Below are positions 2-43,593 of a stretch of 64,000 nt of DNA, in pieces. Where the stretch lies: the NCBI GenBank assembly GCA_963692915.1, contig OY843584.1:1152001-1216000 (forward strand), in the 5' to 3' direction. The DNA is from Cenarchaeum sp. GTDB lineage: Archaea; Thermoproteota; Nitrososphaeria; Nitrososphaerales; Nitrosopumilaceae. The notes beneath the pieces are model-generated. The model saw only the letters and a list, made by a program, of their open reading frames with translations. It had not been told where the DNA came from and made no database searches. Every line of letters begins with the position of its first letter. The first letter of the stretch is position 1. The translations under genes and the position numbers were made by a program.

Positions 2-1282
2 GTGGCCGAGGGCGACTATGACCTCGAGACCGAGCTCGCCGAGGTCGAGGGCGGCGATGCGATAAGGATGTACCAGAGGTGGCCGGTTCGCAAGGCGCGG
101 CCATACAAGGATCGCCACAACCCGACGATACCGCTGATCACCGGCCAGCGCGTCATCGACACGTTCTTTCCCATAGTAAAGGGCGGCACGGGCTCGATAC
201 CCGGCGCGTTTGGGACTGGCAAGACAGTCACGCTGCACCAGATAGCAAAGTGGGCCGACTCGCAGGTCGTAGTCTATATCGGGTGCGGCGAGCGCGGCAA
301 CGAGATGACCGAGGTTCTCGTGGAGTTTCCGCACCTAAAGGATCCGCGCACGGGCAAGCCGCTAATGGACAGGACGGTCCTCGTTGCCAACACGAGCAAC
401 ATGCCAGTCGCCGCGCGCGAGGCGAGCATATACACGGGCGTCACGATCGCCGAGTACTATCGCGACATGGGCAACGACGTCGTCCTAGTCGCCGACTCGA
501 CGAGCCGCTGGGCAGAGGCCCTCAGGGAGATGAGCGGCCGACTCGAGGAGATGCCTGCCGAGGAGGGATATCCGTCATACCTGGCCTCGAGGCTAGCCGA
601 GTTCTACGAGAGGGCCGGCCGCGTGCGCGCACTCGGCGGTCCGGACAGGGACGGCTCAGTCACTCTAGTGGGCGCCGTCTCGCCGTCCGGAGGCGACTTT
701 ACAGAGCCCGTGACGACGCACACGATGCGCTTCATCAAGACGTTCTGGGCGCTTGACGCAAAGCTCGCATACTCGCGCCACTATCCGTCGATAAACTGGA
801 TGAACAGCTATTCGGGATACCTCGGCGACATATCGACGTGGTGGGAAAAGGAGGTCAGCGAGGGATGGCCCGCGCTGCGCCAGGAGGCATACGGCATACT
901 CCAGCGCGAGGACACGCTAAAGGAGATAGTCAGGCTGCTCGGCACAGAGGCCCTCCCTGACGAGGAGAAGCTCATACTAGAGATCGCGCGCATGATAAAG
1001 ATAGGCATACTCCAGCAGAACTCCTTTGACGAGGTCGACACCTATTGCAATCCCAAAAAGCAGTACATGCTCCTAAAGATAATGATCGCGTTCTATGAGC
1101 GCAGCAAGCGCGCACTAGTCGACGGGGCCGGCATTGCCGATATCCGATCTCTTCCGGTGATATCGTCGATACTAAAGGCAAGGATGGAGATAAAGGATGA
1201 CGAGATGCCAAAGCTAGAGGCCATCCTTGGGACGATGGAGAAAGAGTTTGAGCAGATTCACACGGGGGCAAAGGCGGCATGA
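2..1282 (+). CDS. atpA: A/V-type ATP synthase subunit A (5'-truncated by window edge)
   Basis: Walker [29 protein letters not shown] and [10 protein letters not shown] motifs. Confidence 0.98.
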
Positions 1283-2664
1283 GCCAGTCCGGCGGCGTCC
1301 AGTACAGCAAGATAGCCGAGATAAAGGGTCCGCTAGTCATAGTCGAAGGTGTCGAGAACGCCGCCTTTGACGAGCTAGTCGAGATAACTGCCGGTGATGA
1401 GCGCAGGCTCGGAAAGGTTCTCGAGGTCGGAAACGGCAAGGCAGTCGTGCAGGTCTTTGAGGGCACGACAGGCCTCTCGGTCGCCGAGACGAGGGCAAAG
1501 TTTGTCGGGCGCGCCATGGAGATGCCCGTCTCGCGCGAGGTTCTGGGCCGCGTCTTTGACGGGCTCGGAAGGCCAAAGGACGGCCTGCCTGATCCCGTAG
1601 CTGACAAGTTTATTGACATTAACGGTGAGCCGATGAACCCCGAGCAGCGCGAGTACCCCAAGGACTTTATCCAGACTGGCGTCTCGGTCATCGACGGGAT
1701 GATCACGCTTGTTCGCGGACAAAAGCTCCCGATATTTTCGGGCTCGGGCATATCGCACAACATACTTGCCGCGCAGATTGCGCGCCAGGCCACGGTGCGC
1801 GGCACGGGCGAGGAGTTTGCCGTAGTCTTTGCTGCAATCGGCGTCCAGTACAGCGAGGCCGAGTACTTTAGAAAGAGCCTCGAGGACTCGGGCGCGCTAA
1901 AGCGCAGCGTCCTGTTCCTAAACCTCGCCGACGATCCCGCAATAGAGCGAATCATCACGCCCCGCGTCGCGCTGACTGTCGCCGAGCACCTGGCATTCGA
2001 GCTGGGCATGCACGTGCTAGTCATACTTACTGACATGACAAACTATGCCGAGGCGCTCAGGGAGATAAGCGCGGCGCGCGAGGAGGTGCCCGGCCGCAAG
2101 GGATACCCCGGATACCTATACACTGACCTCTCGACGATATACGAGAGGGCCGGCAAGCTCAACGGCAAGCAGGGCAGCGTGACGCAGGTGCCCATACTCT
2201 CAATGCCCTCAGATGACATCACGCACCCGATACCCGACCTGACCGGATACATCACGGAGGGCCAGATAGTCCTGGGCCGTGACCTCTTTAGGCAGGGCGT
2301 CTATCCGCCGGTAAACATACTCATGAGCCTGAGCCGCCTGATGAAGGACGGGATCGGCGCAGACCGCACGCGCGATGACCACCAGGAGATATCAAACCAG
2401 AACTATGACGCGTACTCGCGCTCACAGGAGGTTCGCGCGCTCGCCGGCATCGTCGGCAAGGCCGGCCTGACTGACATTGACCTAAAGTACATGGATGTCG
2501 GCGAGGTCTTTGAGAAGGAGTTTTTGAGCCAGGGCGTCGACGAGAACCGCACGATAGAGGAGACGCTGAGCATACTCTGGAAGGTCGTCTCGATGCTCCC
2601 GAGAACCGAGCTCACAAAGGTCAAGGACAAGTTCATCGACGAGCACTACGGCGGGGGAAAGTGA
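1279..2664 (+). CDS. atpB: A/V-type ATP synthase subunit B
   Basis: [25 protein letters not shown] and [15 protein letters not shown] motifs; ATGA overlap with atpA. Confidence 0.98.
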
Positions 2665-2668
2665 CGCA

Positions 2669-3301
2669 ATGTCCTTTGGCCAGAGCGTCGCAGTCACAAA
2701 GATAGAGCTTTTGAAGTACAAGCGCTCAAGCCAGGTCGCAACGATGGTGCAAAAGATACTCGATGACAAGAGAAAGGTCCTCCTAAAGAACATCGAGGAG
2801 ATGATCGACGAGGCGATGAAGGCGCGCGGCGGCATCTGGGAGCCGCTCCAGGACATTTACACGTCAGTCAACGAGTCATACCTCGCGCTAGGCACGCACA
2901 CTGTCGACTCGGTCGCCGAGTCAACGCCGGCCGTCATGGAAGTCGACGTCAGCGTTCGCCGCATAGTTGACGTAAAGGTGCCCACGCTAAACGTCACTGA
3001 AAAGGACACAAAGTCCGCACCCTACGGGTTTGCCGACACAAACGCATCGATGGATCGCGCTACAAAGCAGATAAAGGAGCTCCTCCCGAGAATCTGCAAG
3101 GCCGCCGAGTATGAAAACTCGATATTCAGCCTCGCCAAGGCGCTCGAAAAGACGCAAAAGCTCCTCAACGCCCTAGAGAACGTCATAATCCCGCAGTACC
3201 AGCAGCGCATAAAGTTCATCATGTCGGTTCTCGAGGAGCGCGAGCGCGAAGAGTTTGCCAAGCTCAAAAAGGTAAAGGCGGCAATGGAGAGGCGCAAGTG
3301 A
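2669..3301 (+). CDS. atpD: A/V-type ATP synthase subunit D
   Basis: TKIEL N-terminus, NALENVIIP and LEEREREEF motifs; operon position. Confidence 0.95.
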   Translation: MSFGQSVAVTKIELLKYKRSSQVATMVQKILDDKRKVLLKNIEEMIDEAMKARGGIWEPLQDIYTSVNESYLALGTHTVDSVAESTPAVMEVDVSVRRIVDVKVPTLNVTEKDTKSAPYGFADTNASMDRATKQIKELLPRICKAAEYENSIFSLAKALEKTQKLLNALENVIIPQYQQRIKFIMSVLEEREREEFAKLKKVKAAMERRK

Positions 3302-3303
3302 CC

Positions 3304-3435
3304 ATGGCGCGCGACGCCATAGCGGGGATGCTCGGCGAGGCCGGCAAGGCACTAGAGGCCGAGCACGGCGCGCTGCGCACCGAGATCGAGTCTGGCCTCG
3401 AGGGCCTCAAAAAGAAGGCGCTGTCAGGGGCATGA
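3304..3435 (+). CDS. 43-aa helical protein at end of atp operon (not in ORF track)
   Basis: ATG 3 nt after atpD stop; MARDAIAGMLGEAGKALEAEHGALRTEIESGLEGLKKKALSGA; host-like codons. Confidence 0.6.
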   Translation: MARDAIAGMLGEAGKALEAEHGALRTEIESGLEGLKKKALSGA

Positions 3436-3786
3436 TCGGCGTGCGGCGCACGGAATCGCGTGCCGCAGTCGAGCACCGTCTTTTTATAATGACGGCGGCT
3501 AGTACAGATAGGTTAAAGTACGGTACGCCTAAAAGGCAGGCGTGAGAGTCACGGAGGACACAAGCATCGTCAGATCCTGCCGCAGTTCGATGTGGAACAG
3601 ACTGGCAAGTTGGCAGATTTGGAGAATATCGAGCGTGGGCATTAGACCAACAGCGGAGACGAAGGCGCAATGATGTCAAGACAGGCATCAAATATAACAA
3701 AATGGTCATCGAGAAGTACGAAAACGCCGCACGTAAATCGTTTGACAAACCTCAAGGCCACGCTAGAAAGCGCACACAACAACAAG

Positions 3787-4779
3787 ATGTTTGTAGACAC
3801 GACATCCGTAAAGACTCCAAGAAAGAAACCCACCCACATAGACCTGTTCTCCGGCGCCGGCGGAAACATGGAGGGGTTGAGACAGGCAGGATTTAGCACA
3901 ATATTGTCAGCGGAAATAGATGATGACGCGTCTGACACTATAGAGAGCAATTTTCCCAAGACACGGCACATTAGAGGCGACATTACCAAAGTGCCCAATT
4001 CCCAAATCAAAAAAAACATAGGTAAGAAAAACATCGATGTGCTTTCTGCTGGATTTCCATGCCAGGGATTTTCAATTGCCGGATTTCAGGACATAGATGA
4101 CAAACGCAATATCTTGTATCGAGAAGTGGTAAGATTTGTTCGGTTAGCACAACCAAAGTATGTCGTGCTTGAAAATGTTCCAGGAATAATAAGCATGAAT
4201 GACGGGAAATTTGTTGCTGACATAAAAAGATCATTTACAAAAATTGGATATCCAAATATGTCTGTCCTAATACTCGAGTCAGCCACATATGGCGTACCAC
4301 AAATAAGACCACGAGCAATTTTTATGGCAAACAGACTAGGCAAAAAAAACCCATATCCGCTCCCCATATTATCTCCAGACAATTACAGGCCAATTGAATC
4401 AGCAATTGGAGATCTTGAGAAAAAAAAGAGGGAGAAACGCACCAATCACGAATGGACGGCACACCGACCAGACATGATAAAACGGATAGCGCGTATACCT
4501 CCCGGAGGATCACTCTATGAGACTTATGTAGACTGCGCAAAGCGCCAATATGTAGGAGTTCCCTCAATGACGATAAAAGAAAATCATGGAGGAACTCACA
4601 TACACTACAAGCTTGATCGCATGATCTCGGCAAGAGAGATGGCCAGATTACAGAGTTTCCCAGACAGCTTCAAGTTTTCAGGCAGGATGAAACGAGTCAT
4701 GTGGCAGATTGGGAATGCGGCGCCGCCACTTTTGTTTAAGCACATAGGCAAGTCAATAATCAGCCAAATCAAAACATAG
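3787..4779 (+). CDS. DNA (cytosine-5)-methyltransferase of a type II R-M system
   Basis: DLFSGAGG (I), GFPCQGFS (IV), ENVPG (VI), QIRPR (VIII), REMARLQSFP (IX), IGNAAPP (X); AT-rich; start uncertain (3670-3787). Confidence 0.95.
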   Translation: MFVDTTSVKTPRKKPTHIDLFSGAGGNMEGLRQAGFSTILSAEIDDDASDTIESNFPKTRHIRGDITKVPNSQIKKNIGKKNIDVLSAGFPCQGFSIAGFQDIDDKRNILYREVVRFVRLAQPKYVVLENVPGIISMNDGKFVADIKRSFTKIGYPNMSVLILESATYGVPQIRPRAIFMANRLGKKNPYPLPILSPDNYRPIESAIGDLEKKKREKRTNHEWTAHRPDMIKRIARIPPGGSLYETYVDCAKRQYVGVPSMTIKENHGGTHIHYKLDRMISAREMARLQSFPDSFKFSGRMKRVMWQIGNAAPPLLFKHIGKSIISQIKT

Positions 4780-9304: not shown

Positions 9305-11014
9305 CTAGAAGAGGCTGTAGAGTCGACCGAGCGGCACGGTTCGCGCAGGCTCGGCGCTGGCGATCCGGCCATCAACGCGCACTTTGTACGTCTCGGCGTT
9401 GACCTCGATCTTTGGCGTCAGCGAGTTGTGAACCATGTCGGCCTTGCCTATCTTGCGGCAGTTGGAGACTGGAACCATTCTCTTTTTCGTGCCAAGCCTT
9501 GACTGGAGGCCAGACTCGTGGGCCGCAGCGGACACAAAGGCTAGCGACGTGGAGCTTCTCGCGCCGCCGAGCGCGCCGAACATCGGACGGTACCTCACCG
9601 GCTCGGTGTTGGGTATAGACGCGTTGGGATCCCCCATGAGCGAATATGCGATGAGGCCACCCTTTATGACGAGCTTTGGCCTGATGCCAAAGAACTGTGG
9701 TGACCACAGGACAATGTCAGCAAGCTTGCCGCGCTCTAGTGATCCTACGTATGAGGATATGCCATGCGCAATTGCTGGATTGATCGTTATCTTTGCGAGA
9801 TAGCGCATTATGCGCGCATTGTCAGCGTTGCCATCACCTGCGAGCGGACCGGTCGCGTCCTTCATCTTGGATGCAGTCTGCCAGTTTCGCACCGTCACCT
9901 CGCCGACTCGACCCATGGCCTGGCTGTCTGAGGACATCATGCTTATTGCACCAATGTCATGGAGGACATCTTCGGCTGCAATCGTCTCTCCACGTATGCG
10001 CGACTCGGCAAACGCGACATCTTCCACCACTGACGGGTTGAGGTGGTGGCAGACCATCATCATGTCAAGGTGTTCGGCAAGCGTGTTTACGGTAAACGGT
10101 CGCGTTGGGTTTGTCGATGACGGCAAGACATTGGGCTCGCCGGCGATCTTGATAATGTCAGGCGCATGTCCCCCGCCGGCGCCTTCTGTGTGGTACGTGT
10201 GTATGGTGCGGCCTGCAATGGCGGCTATTGTGTCATCGACATAGCCGCACTCGTTGAGCGTGTCCGTGTGGATCGCGACCTGCACGTCTGCCTTGTCCGC
10301 AACGCGCAGTGCCGCATCAATAGTTGCCGGAGTCGTGCCCCAGTCCTCATGGAGCTTTAGGCCGCACGCGCCGGCCCGCACCTGTGCCATGAGGGTCTCT
10401 TCGCGCGAGTCGTTGCCCTTTGCGAGAAACCCGACATTCACGGGGAGCGCATCGGCGGCCTCTAGCATCCTGTGTATGTTCCACTCGCCCGGCGTGCACG
10501 TTGTGGCGCACGTCCCGTCAGCCGGCCCTGTCCCTCCGCCGATCATAGTAGTCGTGCCGGCGCATATTGCGTGCGTGGCCTGCTGCGGCGAGACAAAGTG
10601 GATGTGGCTGTCTATTGTGCCCGGCGTGCAGATCGCGTGCTCGCCGGCGATGACCTCCGTGCTAGAGGAGACGACCATGTCAACTGCGTCCATTGTTCCC
10701 GGATTGCCCGCGTTTCCGACGCCGGCGATCAGGCCGTCCTTTATCCCAATGTCGGCCTTTATGATCCCAAGGACGGGATCCATCACGATCGCGTTAGTTA
10801 TGACGAGGTCAAGGGAACCCTCGCGAGGCGTACCGCTAGCCTGACCCATGCCATCGCGCGCGCTCTTGCCACCGCCAAAGACAATCTCGTCACCGTGGCG
10901 CAGCAGATCGCGCTCGACGCTTGCGATGAGCGACGTGTCAGCAAGCCTTATTCTGTCGCCAGCCGTAGGCCCGTAGAGGTCAACGTACCTGTTGCGCGCA
11001 ATCTCAAGCGTCAT
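9305..11014 (-). CDS. ureC: Urease subunit alpha
   Basis: Ni-ligand motifs intact: [44 protein letters not shown]. Confidence 0.99.
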
Positions 11015-24296: not shown

Positions 24297-25025
24297 ATGC
24301 TCGTGTGCGGTGTTGATGACGCCGGCCGTGGCCCTGTAATGGGTCCACTAGTGATAGCCGGAGTCACGATCGAAAAACGACACCTCCCGCGACTGTCACG
24401 CCTCGGCGTGCGCGACTCCAAGGAGCTCACTCCGGCGCGGCGCGAAGAGCTGTATGACGAGATCGTGGACGTGGCCGTCGATCACCATGTCTCGCGCATA
24501 CAACCACGCACGATAGACAAGCACGTCAAGCGCCACGAGCTCAACCTTGTTGAGGCGATCCACATGGCGCGCGTCATATCAGGGCTAATGCCACACACGG
24601 CATACGTCGACGCGTGTGACGTCGATGCCAAAAGGTTTGGCAAGATGGTCTCAAGCCTTCTAAAAGATGGCTGTGCCGCAAGAGTAAGACCATATCACAG
24701 GGCAGACAAGAGATTTCCCATAGTGTCAGCCGCGTCGATCATCGCAAAGGTCGAGCGTGATCGCGCAGTCGCAAGGATTCGCAAGATCCACAGCATCGGC
24801 AGCGGTTACCCCGCAGACCCCGCATGCGTCAGGTTCCTAAAGCGACACGCGAGGAAAAACGACGCGCCGCCAAGGTTTGCGCGCGCCACATGGATGACGG
24901 TTCGTCGCATATACGGGCTCAGCGAGCCTGAGCCACGGCGAGCGCGTGGTCGCGGTCATAGGGCTCAAGTCCCATTGATTGGAGCACGTCAAGCTCGCCG
25001 GAAACCTTTGCAAGCTCGTCGCTGA
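24297..25025 (+). CDS. rnhB: Ribonuclease HII
   Basis: GVDDAGRGPVMGP, RDSKEL, VSAASIIAKVERD and GSGYP motifs. Confidence 0.95.
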   Translation: MLVCGVDDAGRGPVMGPLVIAGVTIEKRHLPRLSRLGVRDSKELTPARREELYDEIVDVAVDHHVSRIQPRTIDKHVKRHELNLVEAIHMARVISGLMPHTAYVDACDVDAKRFGKMVSSLLKDGCAARVRPYHRADKRFPIVSAASIIAKVERDRAVARIRKIHSIGSGYPADPACVRFLKRHARKNDAPPRFARATWMTVRRIYGLSEPEPRRARGRGHRAQVPLIGARQARRKPLQARR

Positions 25026-25593
25026 TCACCGACGCCGGTGTGCGTGTCACGTCAATGCTGCGCGCCTTTATGACAAGGATGAGCCAGCCGTGATCGCGCA
25101 GGTGTGCGCGGCAGTTGGCCAGGGCAATCTCGGTCTGGTCAGGCTGTGCGATATCCGAGTACACGACATCAACCTTGCCATAGACTGAAAAGTACTCTCG
25201 TGGTTGGCGTGCATCCTGCATCACTGGTGTGACGTTTGTGCGGTGCGAGGCGACGCGGTCGAGGAGCTCGCGCGCGACGCGGCTGGCGTGCTCGACGGCG
25301 AACACGCGGCCAGTGGCGCCCACAATGTCCGAGACGTGGCTGACCGTCGTGCCCGTTGAGGCTCCAAGGTACAGGACAGACGAGCCGCGCACGATCGGAA
25401 CCGGCTCAAGGCCCTTTAGTATCGCCGCGGCGAGCTTGCTGCGGTGCGGATCCCACACGCGCCATTCAGTCTCCCCGCGCAGCACGAGATCCTCCCCATA
25501 GACGCGCCTGCCGCGCGCGAGGTTTGGCGTCGCGAGGCGGCGCTGGCCGTCATGCTCTATTGTCGCGTGAGCCTCGTCTGTCCTTTTTGTCAA
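24919..25593 (-). CDS. flpA: Fibrillarin-like rRNA/tRNA 2'-O-methyltransferase
   Basis: WDPHRSKLAAA, LYLGASTGTTVSHVSD and DIAQPDQ; likely TTG start inside the nop5 3' end. Confidence 0.96.
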   Translation of the reverse strand: MTKRTDEAHATIEHDGQRRLATPNLARGRRVYGEDLVLRGETEWRVWDPHRSKLAAAILKGLEPVPIVRGSSVLYLGASTGTTVSHVSDIVGATGRVFAVEHASRVARELLDRVASHRTNVTPVMQDARQPREYFSVYGKVDVVYSDIAQPDQTEIALANCRAHLRDHGWLILVIKARSIDVTRTPASVISDELAKVSGELDVLQSMGLEPYDRDHALAVAQAR

Positions 25594-26884
25594 ATCTCCT
25601 CCGTGGCCCCCTAGAGCCCTTTTTGCCCTGGCCCCGTGACCCCTCTTGTCGCTCGCGGCCGTCGCGACGTCCGCGACTGTCGCGGCGCGGCGGACCGCCA
25701 TGCCTAGAGCCCCCATGGCGTGGGGCACCCTGGCGCGCGCCATGATCCCCAGAGCGCGCACCCTCGCGAGGCTCGGGGCGCGGAACAGTGCCGATCTCCC
25801 TGACACGCACGTTGAGCTTTTCAAGGAGCGTCTCGTTGAGGCCGCCGCCGTAGACGTCAACGCGCGCGGCGATTGCTGCCTTTGAGGCTATCGCGCGCGC
25901 CATCCGCCCGCGCTGCCAGCGCGGCGCAGCATGAACCAGCGCGTGCTGAAAGAGCAGGCCGTGCTTTGGCGGCAGCGCGCCAGTCTTTAGCGATCGAAAG
26001 AGCGCCTTCTCGGCGCCGAGAACCTGTATGCTGCTAGCCGGCATCGTCGCAAGCCTCGTGAGGCTACCGGCCCGCGATATCACGCGCGCGCCAATGAGCG
26101 CGCCGAGTATTGCAGACGTGTTTGGCGCAACGCTTTCCATCTCGGCGTTCACGTGGGCCTCGAGCTCGTGGCGGTGCGCCGACAGGTGCAGTATGTGCTC
26201 GGCTAGATCACGAACCATGGACAGGCTTCCGGCCGCAATCTCGCCACCGCGGCTCTTTGGCGCCATGAGAAGAACCATCTCGGCAACAGACTTGTCGAGT
26301 CCGGCCTCGATGAGTGACTCGCCTGATATGCCAGCACGATCGCCGATGCGCGCGACGCGCGCGTATGGCGCAATGCCATCGATGACGTTCTCTAGCTCGG
26401 GAAAGTGGAGGCCATACCACTCGCGCAACCGCGAGTTGTGCCCGTTGAGTGCCCTGTCGGCCTCATCCATCGCGCGAATCGCCTGGATAATGTGCGCGTC
26501 TGGACTCTGCGAGGCCTCACTCACTTTTGCCGAGGACAGGCCCATCGCAAAGTCGCGCAGCTTTGAGGCCGCATCCTCCTCGCCAGACGCAAATCCCGCC
26601 TCCACAAGTATCGCTATCTTGTCAGCCTGTATCTTTGAGACCTCGGACTCCTCAAGGGCGCGCGCCTCCACGGACCGTGCGCGAAGCGCGTCAAGCAGTG
26701 CCTCGTCATTCACCGTGACGCCCGAGTCAAGTGACTCGGCGTGTGCCACGAGCGCGTCGATCTCGCCCTCGCCGCGCCTGATCGCCATGTACTCGGCGGC
26801 CGCATCGGCGAACGGGAAAGAGGCCACGCGCCTCGAGCCGTCGAGGGCCACGATTCCAAGCTCGGTGAGCACGATTGACTGCAT
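25550..26884 (-). CDS. nop5: Nop5 (Nop56/58) box C/D RNP protein
   Basis: LREWYGLHFPEL, IQVLGAEKALF and PKHGLLFQH; Arg/Gly-rich tail. Confidence 0.96.
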   Translation of the reverse strand: MQSIVLTELGIVALDGSRRVASFPFADAAAEYMAIRRGEGEIDALVAHAESLDSGVTVNDEALLDALRARSVEARALEESEVSKIQADKIAILVEAGFASGEEDAASKLRDFAMGLSSAKVSEASQSPDAHIIQAIRAMDEADRALNGHNSRLREWYGLHFPELENVIDGIAPYARVARIGDRAGISGESLIEAGLDKSVAEMVLLMAPKSRGGEIAAGSLSMVRDLAEHILHLSAHRHELEAHVNAEMESVAPNTSAILGALIGARVISRAGSLTRLATMPASSIQVLGAEKALFRSLKTGALPPKHGLLFQHALVHAAPRWQRGRMARAIASKAAIAARVDVYGGGLNETLLEKLNVRVREIGTVPRPEPREGARSGDHGARQGAPRHGGSRHGGPPRRDSRGRRDGRERQEGSRGQGKKGSRGPRRRFDKKDRRGSRDNRA

Positions 26885-36425: not shown

Positions 36426-36512
36426 TGGCGCGGAGAGAGGGATTCGAACCCTCGTGCTCTTGCGAGCATGGGATTAGCAATCCCACGCCCTACCAGGCTA
36501 GGCGATCTCCGC
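36426..36512 (-). tRNA. tRNA-Ser(GCT)
   Basis: Cloverleaf GCGGAGA/TCTCCGC, anticodon loop TT-GCT-AA, long variable arm, TTCGAAT, encoded CCA. Confidence 0.96.
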
Positions 36513-42807: not shown

Positions 42808-42881
42808 GGGCCCGTAACTCAGCTTGGTAGAGTAACCGGCTCATAACCGGTGAGCCACGGGATCGAAGCCCATCGGGCCCA
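42808..42881 (+). tRNA. tRNA with CAT anticodon, probably tRNA-Ile2 (agmatidine)
   Basis: GGGCCCG/CGGGCCC acceptor, loop CT-CAT-AA, discriminator A; TTTTATA promoter at about 42776; identity inferred from the acceptor stem. Confidence 0.9.
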
Positions 42882-42915
42882 CCTTCGTTAGTTTTAAAGC
42901 GAGCCGTGTGCGCGC

Positions 42916-42984
42916 GCAGCCGGCCGCGATGAGGAATCAGAGTTAACCTGAACTGACTGATGAAAAGGCATTTGACCGAGCTGC
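42916..42984 (+). ncRNA. Dual-guide box C/D sRNA
   Basis: C GCGATGA 42926, D' CTGA 42948, C' CTGATGA 42957, D CCGA 42976, terminal stem GCAGC/GCTGC, own TTTTAAA box at 42892; guides complementary to 23S H69/H71 consensus. Confidence 0.8.
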
Positions 42985-42990
42985 CAACGA

Positions 42991-43593
42991 CTATGTGCGC
43001 GTGCGTGCGCGTATCTCGCCCATGACACCATCATCAATCCTGCCGCTCGAGTGGAGCGCGTCGGCAAGCTCTAGTATTGTCGCAACGCTCCGGAGCTCGA
43101 CGCCCTCGCTTCGCAGTGCATCGCCGGCTCCCTCGAGGCGGTCAACTAGGACGATCGCGCCGCTGACGCCGGCGCCGGCCTCGCGAAGTGCGGCGACTGC
43201 GTGCAGGACAGAGCCTCCCGTCGTGGCCACATCATCAACAACCAGGACGCGATCTCCAGATGACACAATGCCCTCTACGGCACGCGAGGTTCCGTGGCCC
43301 TTTGCTGCCTTGCGGACATAGGCCAGCGGCTTTGCTGACTCGATGGCCAGGGCAGACGCAAAGACGAGGCCTCCGGTGGGTATGGAGGCAAGCGAGTCAA
43401 ATGAGCCAAGGCCTCCGAGGGCCTCGATCTCCCCGAGGAGCGCATCGACCATGCGCCTGAATGTCACAGGCGAACCGGGCACGGCACGCATGTCAACATA
43501 GTAGGGGCTCCTCTTGCCGCTAGAGAGCTCAAAGTCGCCGAACTTTAGCGCGCCGAGCCCGTGGAGCGACTCGGCGAACTCTCTAGGCCTCAC
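42991..43593 (-). CDS. pyrE: Orotate phosphoribosyltransferase
   Basis: FELSSGKRSPYYVD, RKAAKGHG and VVDDVATTGGS (PRPP) motifs. Confidence 0.95.
   Translation of the reverse strand: MRPREFAESLHGLGALKFGDFELSSGKRSPYYVDMRAVPGSPVTFRRMVDALLGEIEALGGLGSFDSLASIPTGGLVFASALAIESAKPLAYVRKAAKGHGTSRAVEGIVSSGDRVLVVDDVATTGGSVLHAVAALREAGAGVSGAIVLVDRLEGAGDALRSEGVELRSVATILELADALHSSGRIDDGVMGEIRARTRT

Follow-up and report, generated by a model that had tools for sequence, protein, structure and literature searches.

We report a dual-guide box C/D sRNA gene on the plus strand of a 64,000-nt stretch of the Cenarchaeum sp. genome (contig OY843584.1, positions 1,152,001 to 1,216,000; hereafter the window), at positions 42921-42986. 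Its product very probably works on nascent 23S rRNA as a canonical archaeal C/D sRNP, clamping the loop of helix 69 (H69) and helix 71 (H71) and methylating two adenosines, A2007 and A2032, the equivalents of E. coli A1913 and A1938. This reading builds on features observed in the genome and its relatives, namely the anatomy of the gene, the complementarity of its guides to rRNA, their conservation, the covariation of a terminal stem, a promoter motif and the genes for the sRNP proteins. By its sequence, the gene appears to be the Nitrososphaeria member of a guide family that is spread across the phylum and whose H71 guide is nearly invariant. The guide family is known, and the sRNA is not a new kind of element; what is new is a thaumarchaeal member with a retargeted D' guide.

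Gene structure and box layout

The host genome is a single contig of 1,644,826 bp with 59.4% G+C. The bounds of the sRNA gene (66 nt) were set by a covariance model, R1, built only from the relatives of the window sRNA; the model scores the window locus at 75.5 bits (E=3.3e-18; genome coordinates G000:C1:1194921-1194986). All parts of the gene lie on the plus strand. The 5' half of a terminal stem, GGCCGC (42922-42927), is followed by a single G and the C box AUGAGGA (42929-42935), which has a G at position 5 of the consensus RUGAUGA. The D' guide, AUCAGAGUUAAC (12 nt, 42936-42947), leads into the D' box CUGA (42948-42951), a 5-nt loop of ACUGA and the C' box CUGAUGA (42957-42963). The D guide, AAAGGCAUUUGA (12 nt, 42964-42975), ends at the D box CCGA (42976-42979; consensus CUGA), and the 3' half of the terminal stem, GCUGCC (42980-42985), closes the structure. 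Both spacers are exactly 12 nt long. The C box and the D box are each one base off consensus, with the GA dinucleotides of the kink-turn intact; the U-to-C change in the D box is unusual. The preliminary description had recognized a dual-guide box C/D sRNA with a complete C/D'/C'/D layout, and we find the same: all four boxes are present in the sequence, as are two 12-nt guides complementary to the host 23S rRNA.

A strict scan of the genome (1.64 Mb, both strands) for C/D'/C'/D boxes with 11-13-nt spacers and a box-adjacent stem returned two matches to the architecture, and rRNA-complementary guides occurred only in the window sRNA. The same scan of the reversed genome and of three shuffles gave 0 matches each, which excludes a chance origin of the C/D architecture together with its rRNA guides. 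A relaxed genome-wide scan yielded 7 rRNA-guided candidates against 2-9 in four control sequences; these candidates are noise and hence give no estimate of the total number of sRNAs in this genome. One of them lies outside the window at C1:1521436-1521501 (+), an AT-rich, C/D-like candidate with AUGAUGU ... CUGA, a stem and 9 pairs to 23S at about position 954, and it comes from this relaxed scan, whose match count does not exceed that of the controls.

No Rfam family reaches its gathering threshold at the sRNA locus, and eukaryotic families were not prominent among the Rfam matches there. When a 401-nt region was reported by E-value, 8 of the 12 sub-threshold matches were C/D-box families overlapping 42922-42999. 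Rfam C/D matches fall at 42925-42981, and the best sub-threshold match, sR17, reaches 26.6 bits, short of its gathering score of 36. The sR17, sR14, sR49, sR1, sR33 and sR11 families resemble the window sRNA in box layout and length, a likeness that resides in the boxes and not in the guides. With all scores below the gathering score, the window sRNA is a member of no Rfam C/D family. Elsewhere in the window, at 10570-10862 (+), Rfam returned a full-length match to 5_ureB_sRNA (RF02514; 65.7 bits, gathering score 40). We take this family to be the antisense RNA of a bacterial ureB gene, and the match most likely simply marks the gene for the urease beta subunit.

Guide pairing with 23S rRNA

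The genome encodes one 23S rRNA (C1:399806-402793) and one 16S rRNA. The preliminary description had placed both guides on the H69-H71 stretch of 23S rRNA, and alignment to the host's own 23S bears this out. Counting from the D' box, positions 3-11 of the D' guide form 9 contiguous Watson-Crick pairs with 23S 2005-2013 (UAACUCUGA) in the H69 loop, leaving guide positions 1 and 2 beside the box unpaired. Positions 2-11 of the D guide, counted from the D box, form 10 contiguous Watson-Crick pairs with 23S 2029-2038 (CAAAUGCCUU) in H71. The predicted duplex energies are -11.8 kcal/mol (D') and -14.8 kcal/mol (D). Dennis et al. ask nine base pairs of an archaeal sRNA guide and place the targets of double guides within 100 nt of each other (PMC4644070); the window sRNA falls within both the nine-base-pair and the double-guide criteria.

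For E. coli numbering, positions 1990-2050 of the host 23S were aligned without gaps to positions 1896-1956 of rrlH (MG1655, annotated at 2904 nt), an offset of 94. In these coordinates the D' guide covers E. coli 1911-1919. The N+5 rule points to host A2007 for the D' guide, which is E. coli A1913, the second A of the UAAC of the H69 loop, and to host A2032 for the D guide, which is E. coli A1938, the third A before U1939 in H71. The two predicted targets lie 25 nt apart, and a Watson-Crick U-A pair occupies N+5 in both guides. The assignment of A1913 and A1938 in the preliminary description is therefore correct for the window sRNA by the gapless rrlH alignment; it does not carry over to relatives for A1913, where the register is not conserved (see below). 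The 23S of E. coli K-12 AG100 (L495, locus 1159-4023) was rejected for numbering: it is 2865 nt long and would put the H71 adenosine at 1899. This annotation is 39 nt shorter than MG1655 rrlH, and the missing bases lie upstream of H71.

Among tRNAs as guide targets, none had more than 6 contiguous pairs. Elsewhere in the genome the two target words occur at chance frequency only and never together. The 34-nt target stretch is letter-identical in all 36 genomes in which the pattern was found (61 were scanned); the other 25 gave no match, probably through unassembled rRNA. Because the target stretch never varies, covariation between guide and target is uninformative.

Conservation and distribution

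A blastn search with the 75-nt region against 60 relatives recovered full-length homologs from 35 of the 36 remaining genomes of the family and from several further families of the order, giving a set of 44 homologous loci with the window included. The alignment of these loci (A1) shows little or no variation in the guide cores, at the positions of the box GA dinucleotides and in most of the stem. R1 matches 135 of the 151 genomes sampled from the class, one of which (G174) is flagged as unpublished; without it the count is 134 of 150. Within the same sample the model matches 109 of the 111 genomes that are at least 90% complete and 80 of 80 within the family. Matches extend to 95 of the 151 genomes of a phylum sample and to 75 of the 131 that fall outside the family. 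With the GA of the boxes invariant in all 44 homologs and R1 recovered so widely in the class, the expectation of the preliminary description that the boxes are conserved in relatives is borne out.

Most genomes carry a single match. Three genomes (G178, G260 and G320) carry two strong R1 matches each, on different contigs or 5.5 kb apart, and these may represent duplicated genes or assembly redundancy. In one further locus (L041:1500-1576, genome G039), the C' box and the start of the D guide are duplicated internally (GUGAUGUUAAGGUA then UGAUGUUAAGGCA), and the RNA is 77 nt long.

The D' guide falls into two types, one directed to the loop of H69 and one to its stem. Alignment A2, a hand-picked subset of the phylum-wide R1 matches plus the window, has 42 rows, of which 25 have a loop-type D' guide and 12 a stem-type one; 4 are ambiguous and 1 has neither type. 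Among the matches listed, the loop-type dual guide occurs in Nitrosopumilaceae, Nitrososphaeraceae, Nitrosotalea, Nitrosocosmicus, Conexivisphaera, Methanomethylicus and Infirmifilum. A loop-type pattern scan of named public records found the boxes in register in at least 102 records, that is, in 102 of 120 among the matches listed, and the remaining 18 are mostly bacterial chance matches. The stem-type guide was found in Desulfurococcales, Acidilobaceae, Pyrodictiaceae and Aeropyrum, with boxes in at least 41 records (41 of 120 among the matches listed). A match labelled 'Archaeoglobus' in the stem-type scan is without a D box and was set aside as a chance match. A scan with the 36-nt target itself returned, among the matches listed, almost exclusively Thermoproteota records and a few bacterial-labelled MAG contigs, with no Asgard or Euryarchaeota record among them. 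Overall, the D' guide appears from these sequences always to lie on H69, at a site that depends on the lineage: the loop here, and the 5' stem in Sulfolobus and Ignicoccus.

Relation to known guides

Dennis et al. 2015 named helices 68, 69 and 71 as methylation hotspots, with dense predicted sites around E. coli A1912 (A2178 in their alignment) (PMC4644070). Both sites of the window sRNA have earlier crenarchaeal predictions, with Sac-sR113 and Iho-sR91 assigned to A2179 (= E. coli 1913) and Sac-sR125 and Iho-sR109 to A2204 (= 1938) (PMC4644070 supplement 1, where the Sac-sR113 target is printed 'A21779'). The preliminary description had called the sites eukaryote-type, an overstatement in view of these crenarchaeal predictions. 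It had also stressed that one sRNA would install two neighbouring marks; the two targets stand, and the arrangement is the norm in archaea: double guides make up 262 of the 489 sRNAs of Dennis et al. (PMC4644070).

Sac-sR125 of Sulfolobus acidocaldarius and Iho-sR109 of Ignicoccus hospitalis carry the same D guide core as the window, AAGGCAUUUG, one nucleotide from the D box (PMC4644070). They share its register, with N+5 on the third A of CAAAUG in H71 and A2204 (= A1938) as the predicted target, and they are alike in size, in dual-guide layout and in having a D' guide on H69. Their D' guide, of the UACCCCCG / UACUCCCG type, is directed to the 5' stem of H69, with G2172 as the listed target, whereas the D' guide of the window reaches the H69 loop about 7 nt downstream; a G2172-type guide is absent from the window sRNA. 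The boxes AUGAGGA and CCGA also differ from those of the two crenarchaeal sRNAs. In the phylum sample, R1 retrieves, at full length, a locus in which the published Sac-sR125 sequence is present without a single difference; it scores 31.4 bits (E about 4e-5 per genome), much of that score stemming from the boxes and the shared D guide.

The H69-loop guide of the window has its counterpart in a second pair. Sac-sR113 and Iho-sR91 carry the same guide, UCAGAGUUA, 2 nt before the box, with A2179 (= A1913) as the listed target; there it occupies the D position, as opposed to the D' position in the window (PMC4644070). A second guide, to G2211, is given for Iho-sR91 and none for Sac-sR113, and both genes are separate from the gene for the H71 guide. 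In the literature searched, with subscription journals and genome-browser tracks outside its scope, no paper was found on box C/D sRNAs or on 2'-O-methylation of rRNA in Nitrososphaeria, and the terms 'Thaumarchaeota' and 'Nitrosopumilus' do not occur in the text of the review by Breuer et al. 2021 (PMC7994747).

The comparison with yeast is one of position. We take Am2256 and Am2281 of yeast 25S rRNA to be the E. coli 1913 and 1938 nucleotides, and pseudouridines 2258 and 2260 presumably correspond to 1915 and 1917. The spacing fits this equivalence (2281 - 2256 = 25 = 1938 - 1913), and positional identity of both adenosines is likely. In yeast, Am2256 is assigned to snR63, the two pseudouridines to snR191, and Am2280/Am2281 to snR13 (Sloan et al., PMC5699541). 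The snR63 and snR13 modifications are 2'-O-methylations of H69 and H71 adenosines 25 nt apart, like the predicted targets of the window sRNA; yeast uses two separate snoRNAs for them, in contrast to the single sRNA in the window.

Register of the D' guide and the object of selection

The D-guide register is identical in all 44 homologs of A1, whereas that of the D' guide varies. Among the 43 homologs with a recognizable D' box, the D' spacer is 13 nt in 33, 12 nt in 9 (like the window) and 11 nt in 1, and spacers of 12 and 13 nt both occur within the genus of the window. A 13-nt spacer shifts the strict N+5 target to E. coli A1912. In the wider survey of named public records, the guide core stands 3 nt away from the D' box in 76 of the 102 box-bearing sRNAs among the matches listed, and 2 nt away in 12. 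Since pairing with the H69 loop is kept while the D' register shifts, the exact H69 nucleotide is not what selection conserves.

This pattern raises the possibility, on balance an unlikely one, that the sRNA is mainly an assembly chaperone. Selection would then act on the ability to pair with the H69 loop and H71 at once and so hold domain IV in a folding-competent state, and methylation, at least on the H69 side, would be secondary, variable or partial. The pairing segments are nearly invariant, yet the D' spacer is either 12 or 13 nt long, which shifts the predicted target from A1913 to A1912; other lineages have their D' guide on the H69 stem (the 12 stem-type rows of A2 and the box-bearing stem-type records above), and a chaperone role has been proposed for double guides in general (PMC4644070). 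Such a role is nonetheless compatible with methylation. A Watson-Crick pair at N+5 is kept in both guides, the genome retains fibrillarin, and the D-guide register is fixed in every homolog, as expected if methylation of A1938 matters. The natural 12/13-nt polymorphism between close relatives could test both how strict the N+5 rule is and whether selection acts on the methyl group or on the pairing.

It is very unlikely, in our assessment, that the H69 target in this organism is A2006 (E. coli A1912) or both adenosines, through a ruler looser than N+5 or another D' register. A1912 is the nucleotide indicated by the register of most relatives and by the density of predicted sites around it, and yeast snR13 modifies the adjacent A2280 and A2281 from one guide (PMC5699541). 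In the window, however, the sole D' box at a workable distance is the CUGA at 42948-42951, which gives the canonical 12-nt spacer. A second CUGA (42953-42956) was tried as the D' box and rejected: it directly adjoins the C' box without a loop, and the spacer would be 17 nt long.

Terminal stem and kink-turn

The box-adjacent stem GGCCGC/GCUGCC forms 5 of 6 possible pairs, with one C.U mismatch. The two halves covary in relatives, where they appear as GACGAC/GUCGUC, GGUGCC/GGCACC, GGCGUC/GACGCC and GCGGC/GCCGC. Across the 43 distinct rows of A1, 80.1% of the cells of the stem and kink-turn pairs are paired, and double-sided changes occupy 30 cells, compared with 10.3 in column shuffles (0 of 500 shuffles reach 30). 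Compensatory change is seen in 6 of the 9 stem and kink-turn pairs, and changes on both sides in 5 of the 7 stem pairs (43 distinct homologs). Slid stem registers all score far below the box-adjacent one.

The preliminary description had drawn a different stem of 5 bp, GCAGC (42916-42920) with GCUGC (42980-42984). The complementarity is present, but this is not the conserved stem, and the 5' end of the RNA was mis-assigned with it. As a functional stem it was rejected: its 5' arm precedes both the conserved region and the likely transcription start, and even the nearest relatives do not keep it. The conserved stem is GGCCGC (42922-42927) with GCUGCC (42980-42985).

Within the kink-turn, U10, G11, A12 and G14 of A1 (C box) are invariant in the 44 homologs, as is the GA of both the C box and the D box. 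The G at position 5 of the C box (42933) faces the C at position 2 of the D box (42977), so that a G-C pair is possible. The corresponding columns of A1 (13/68) hold A-U in 29, G-C in 5, G-U in 3 and other combinations in 6 of the 43 distinct rows. In canonical C/D boxes this kink-turn position is U.U; in the sRNA family it is Watson-Crick or wobble, and in the genus of the window, changes in both boxes have replaced A-U with G-C. A separate set of loci (L107, L115, L129, L131 and L159, among them a record titled Methanomethylicus) combines the C box AUGAUCG or AUGACCG with the D box GAUA or GAAA. This group keeps the stem and both guides, and it looks like a lineage-specific kink-turn variant.

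Promoter and genomic neighbourhood

Upstream of the gene, sequence and conservation mark a putative promoter at 42888-42898 (+), a BRE-like TTAG followed by the TATA box TTTTAAA (TTAGTTTTAAA); the TATA box itself is at 42892-42898 (+), 23 nt before the first G of the stem. The preliminary description had given the sRNA a TTTTAAA box of its own, and relatives corroborate it. The heptamer TTT[TA]AA[AT] starts at -31 to -27 of the sRNA in 29 of 43 homologous loci, a TATA-like heptamer is found nowhere else within 70 nt upstream of the sRNA loci, and the motif is retained in GC-rich relatives too (L004, L005, L027, L037 and L038). From the usual archaeal distance between TATA box and start, transcription would begin at about 42921-42922, the first bases of the conserved stem. 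A conserved motif at a fixed distance argues that the sRNA has its own promoter, from which it would be transcribed. Of the 6 sequencing runs listed for the locus, none is on record as RNA. On the 3' side, no T-run terminator is found beyond the gene in this GC-rich genome.

The gene was described as lying between a tRNA(CAT) and pyrE, and so it does. The upstream neighbour, which is not part of the sRNA, is tRNA-Met(CAT) at 42808-42883 (+), identified by ARAGORN and Rfam, and the sRNA begins 38 nt past it. The only other tRNA in the window is tRNA-Ser(GCT) at 36426-36512 (-). Downstream, pyrE (orotate phosphoribosyltransferase; TIGR00336, 131.4 bits against a cut-off of 106.8) is convergent at 42991-43593 (-), with its stop codon 5 nt beyond the 3' stem. 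The preliminary description had suggested looking for the sRNA at the same position in relatives. There, 22 of 44 homologous loci have a same-strand tRNA-Met whose end is less than 120 nt upstream, and 20 of 44 have pyrE no more than 200 nt downstream; synteny is thus shared in part, and the sRNA is kept where it is lost. The tRNA-sRNA-pyrE arrangement is a family-level habit and no requirement. That the locus is no independent RNA gene at all, and is instead a tRNA-Met trailer, a cis element of the pyrE 3' end or a chance motif, is suggested by its tight spacing to both neighbours, and is scarcely credible for a sequence that is conserved without synteny, has its own promoter motif at a fixed position and a covarying stem, is found across the phylum and gave 0 matches in control scans.

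sRNP proteins and proposed mechanism

The genes for the core proteins of a C/D sRNP are present. Fibrillarin (PF01269, 263.8 bits; 24925-25563 by Pfam match coordinates) and Nop5 (Nop domain, PF01798, 206.6 bits; 25802-26470 by Pfam match coordinates) are both on the minus strand of the window, about 17 kb upstream of the sRNA, in agreement with the preliminary description, which had noted both genes in the same window. L7Ae (PF01248, 99.3 bits) is encoded outside the window, at genome positions 257822-258097.

By analogy with the established archaeal C/D sRNP, we propose the following course of events. The sRNA (42921-42986) would be transcribed from its own TATA promoter, and L7Ae would bind it at two places, the C/D kink-turn and the C'/D' motif, on which Nop5 and fibrillarin would next assemble. 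The two guides would pair simultaneously with stretches of nascent 23S rRNA 25 nt apart, the loop of H69 and the 5' strand of H71. Fibrillarin would then 2'-O-methylate the nucleotide opposite the fifth guide position upstream of each D-type box, that is, A2007 and A2032.

Significance

A broader evolutionary reading can be put forward as a conjecture, and we regard it as quite unlikely. The double guide to the H69 loop and H71 would be an ancient, single-copy core guide of TACK/Thermoproteota, retained even by mesophiles, in which sRNAs are generally few. Selection would act on a clamp on the B2a-bridge region during assembly of the large subunit and not on any one methylated adenosine, and snR63 and snR13 would descend from this guide after its split into separate genes. 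If true, this reading would explain the 12/13-nt register polymorphism.

Finally, the picture of archaeal rRNA modification is unchanged by this gene, the sites, the hotspot and a homologous guide having already been described in Crenarchaeota. What it adds is the annotation, well bounded and class-wide, of a guide RNA for methylation in ammonia-oxidizing and related archaea, one that no Rfam family covers. With it come two predicted ribose methylations at the subunit interface, one in H71 and the other in the loop of H69, which contacts the decoding centre.
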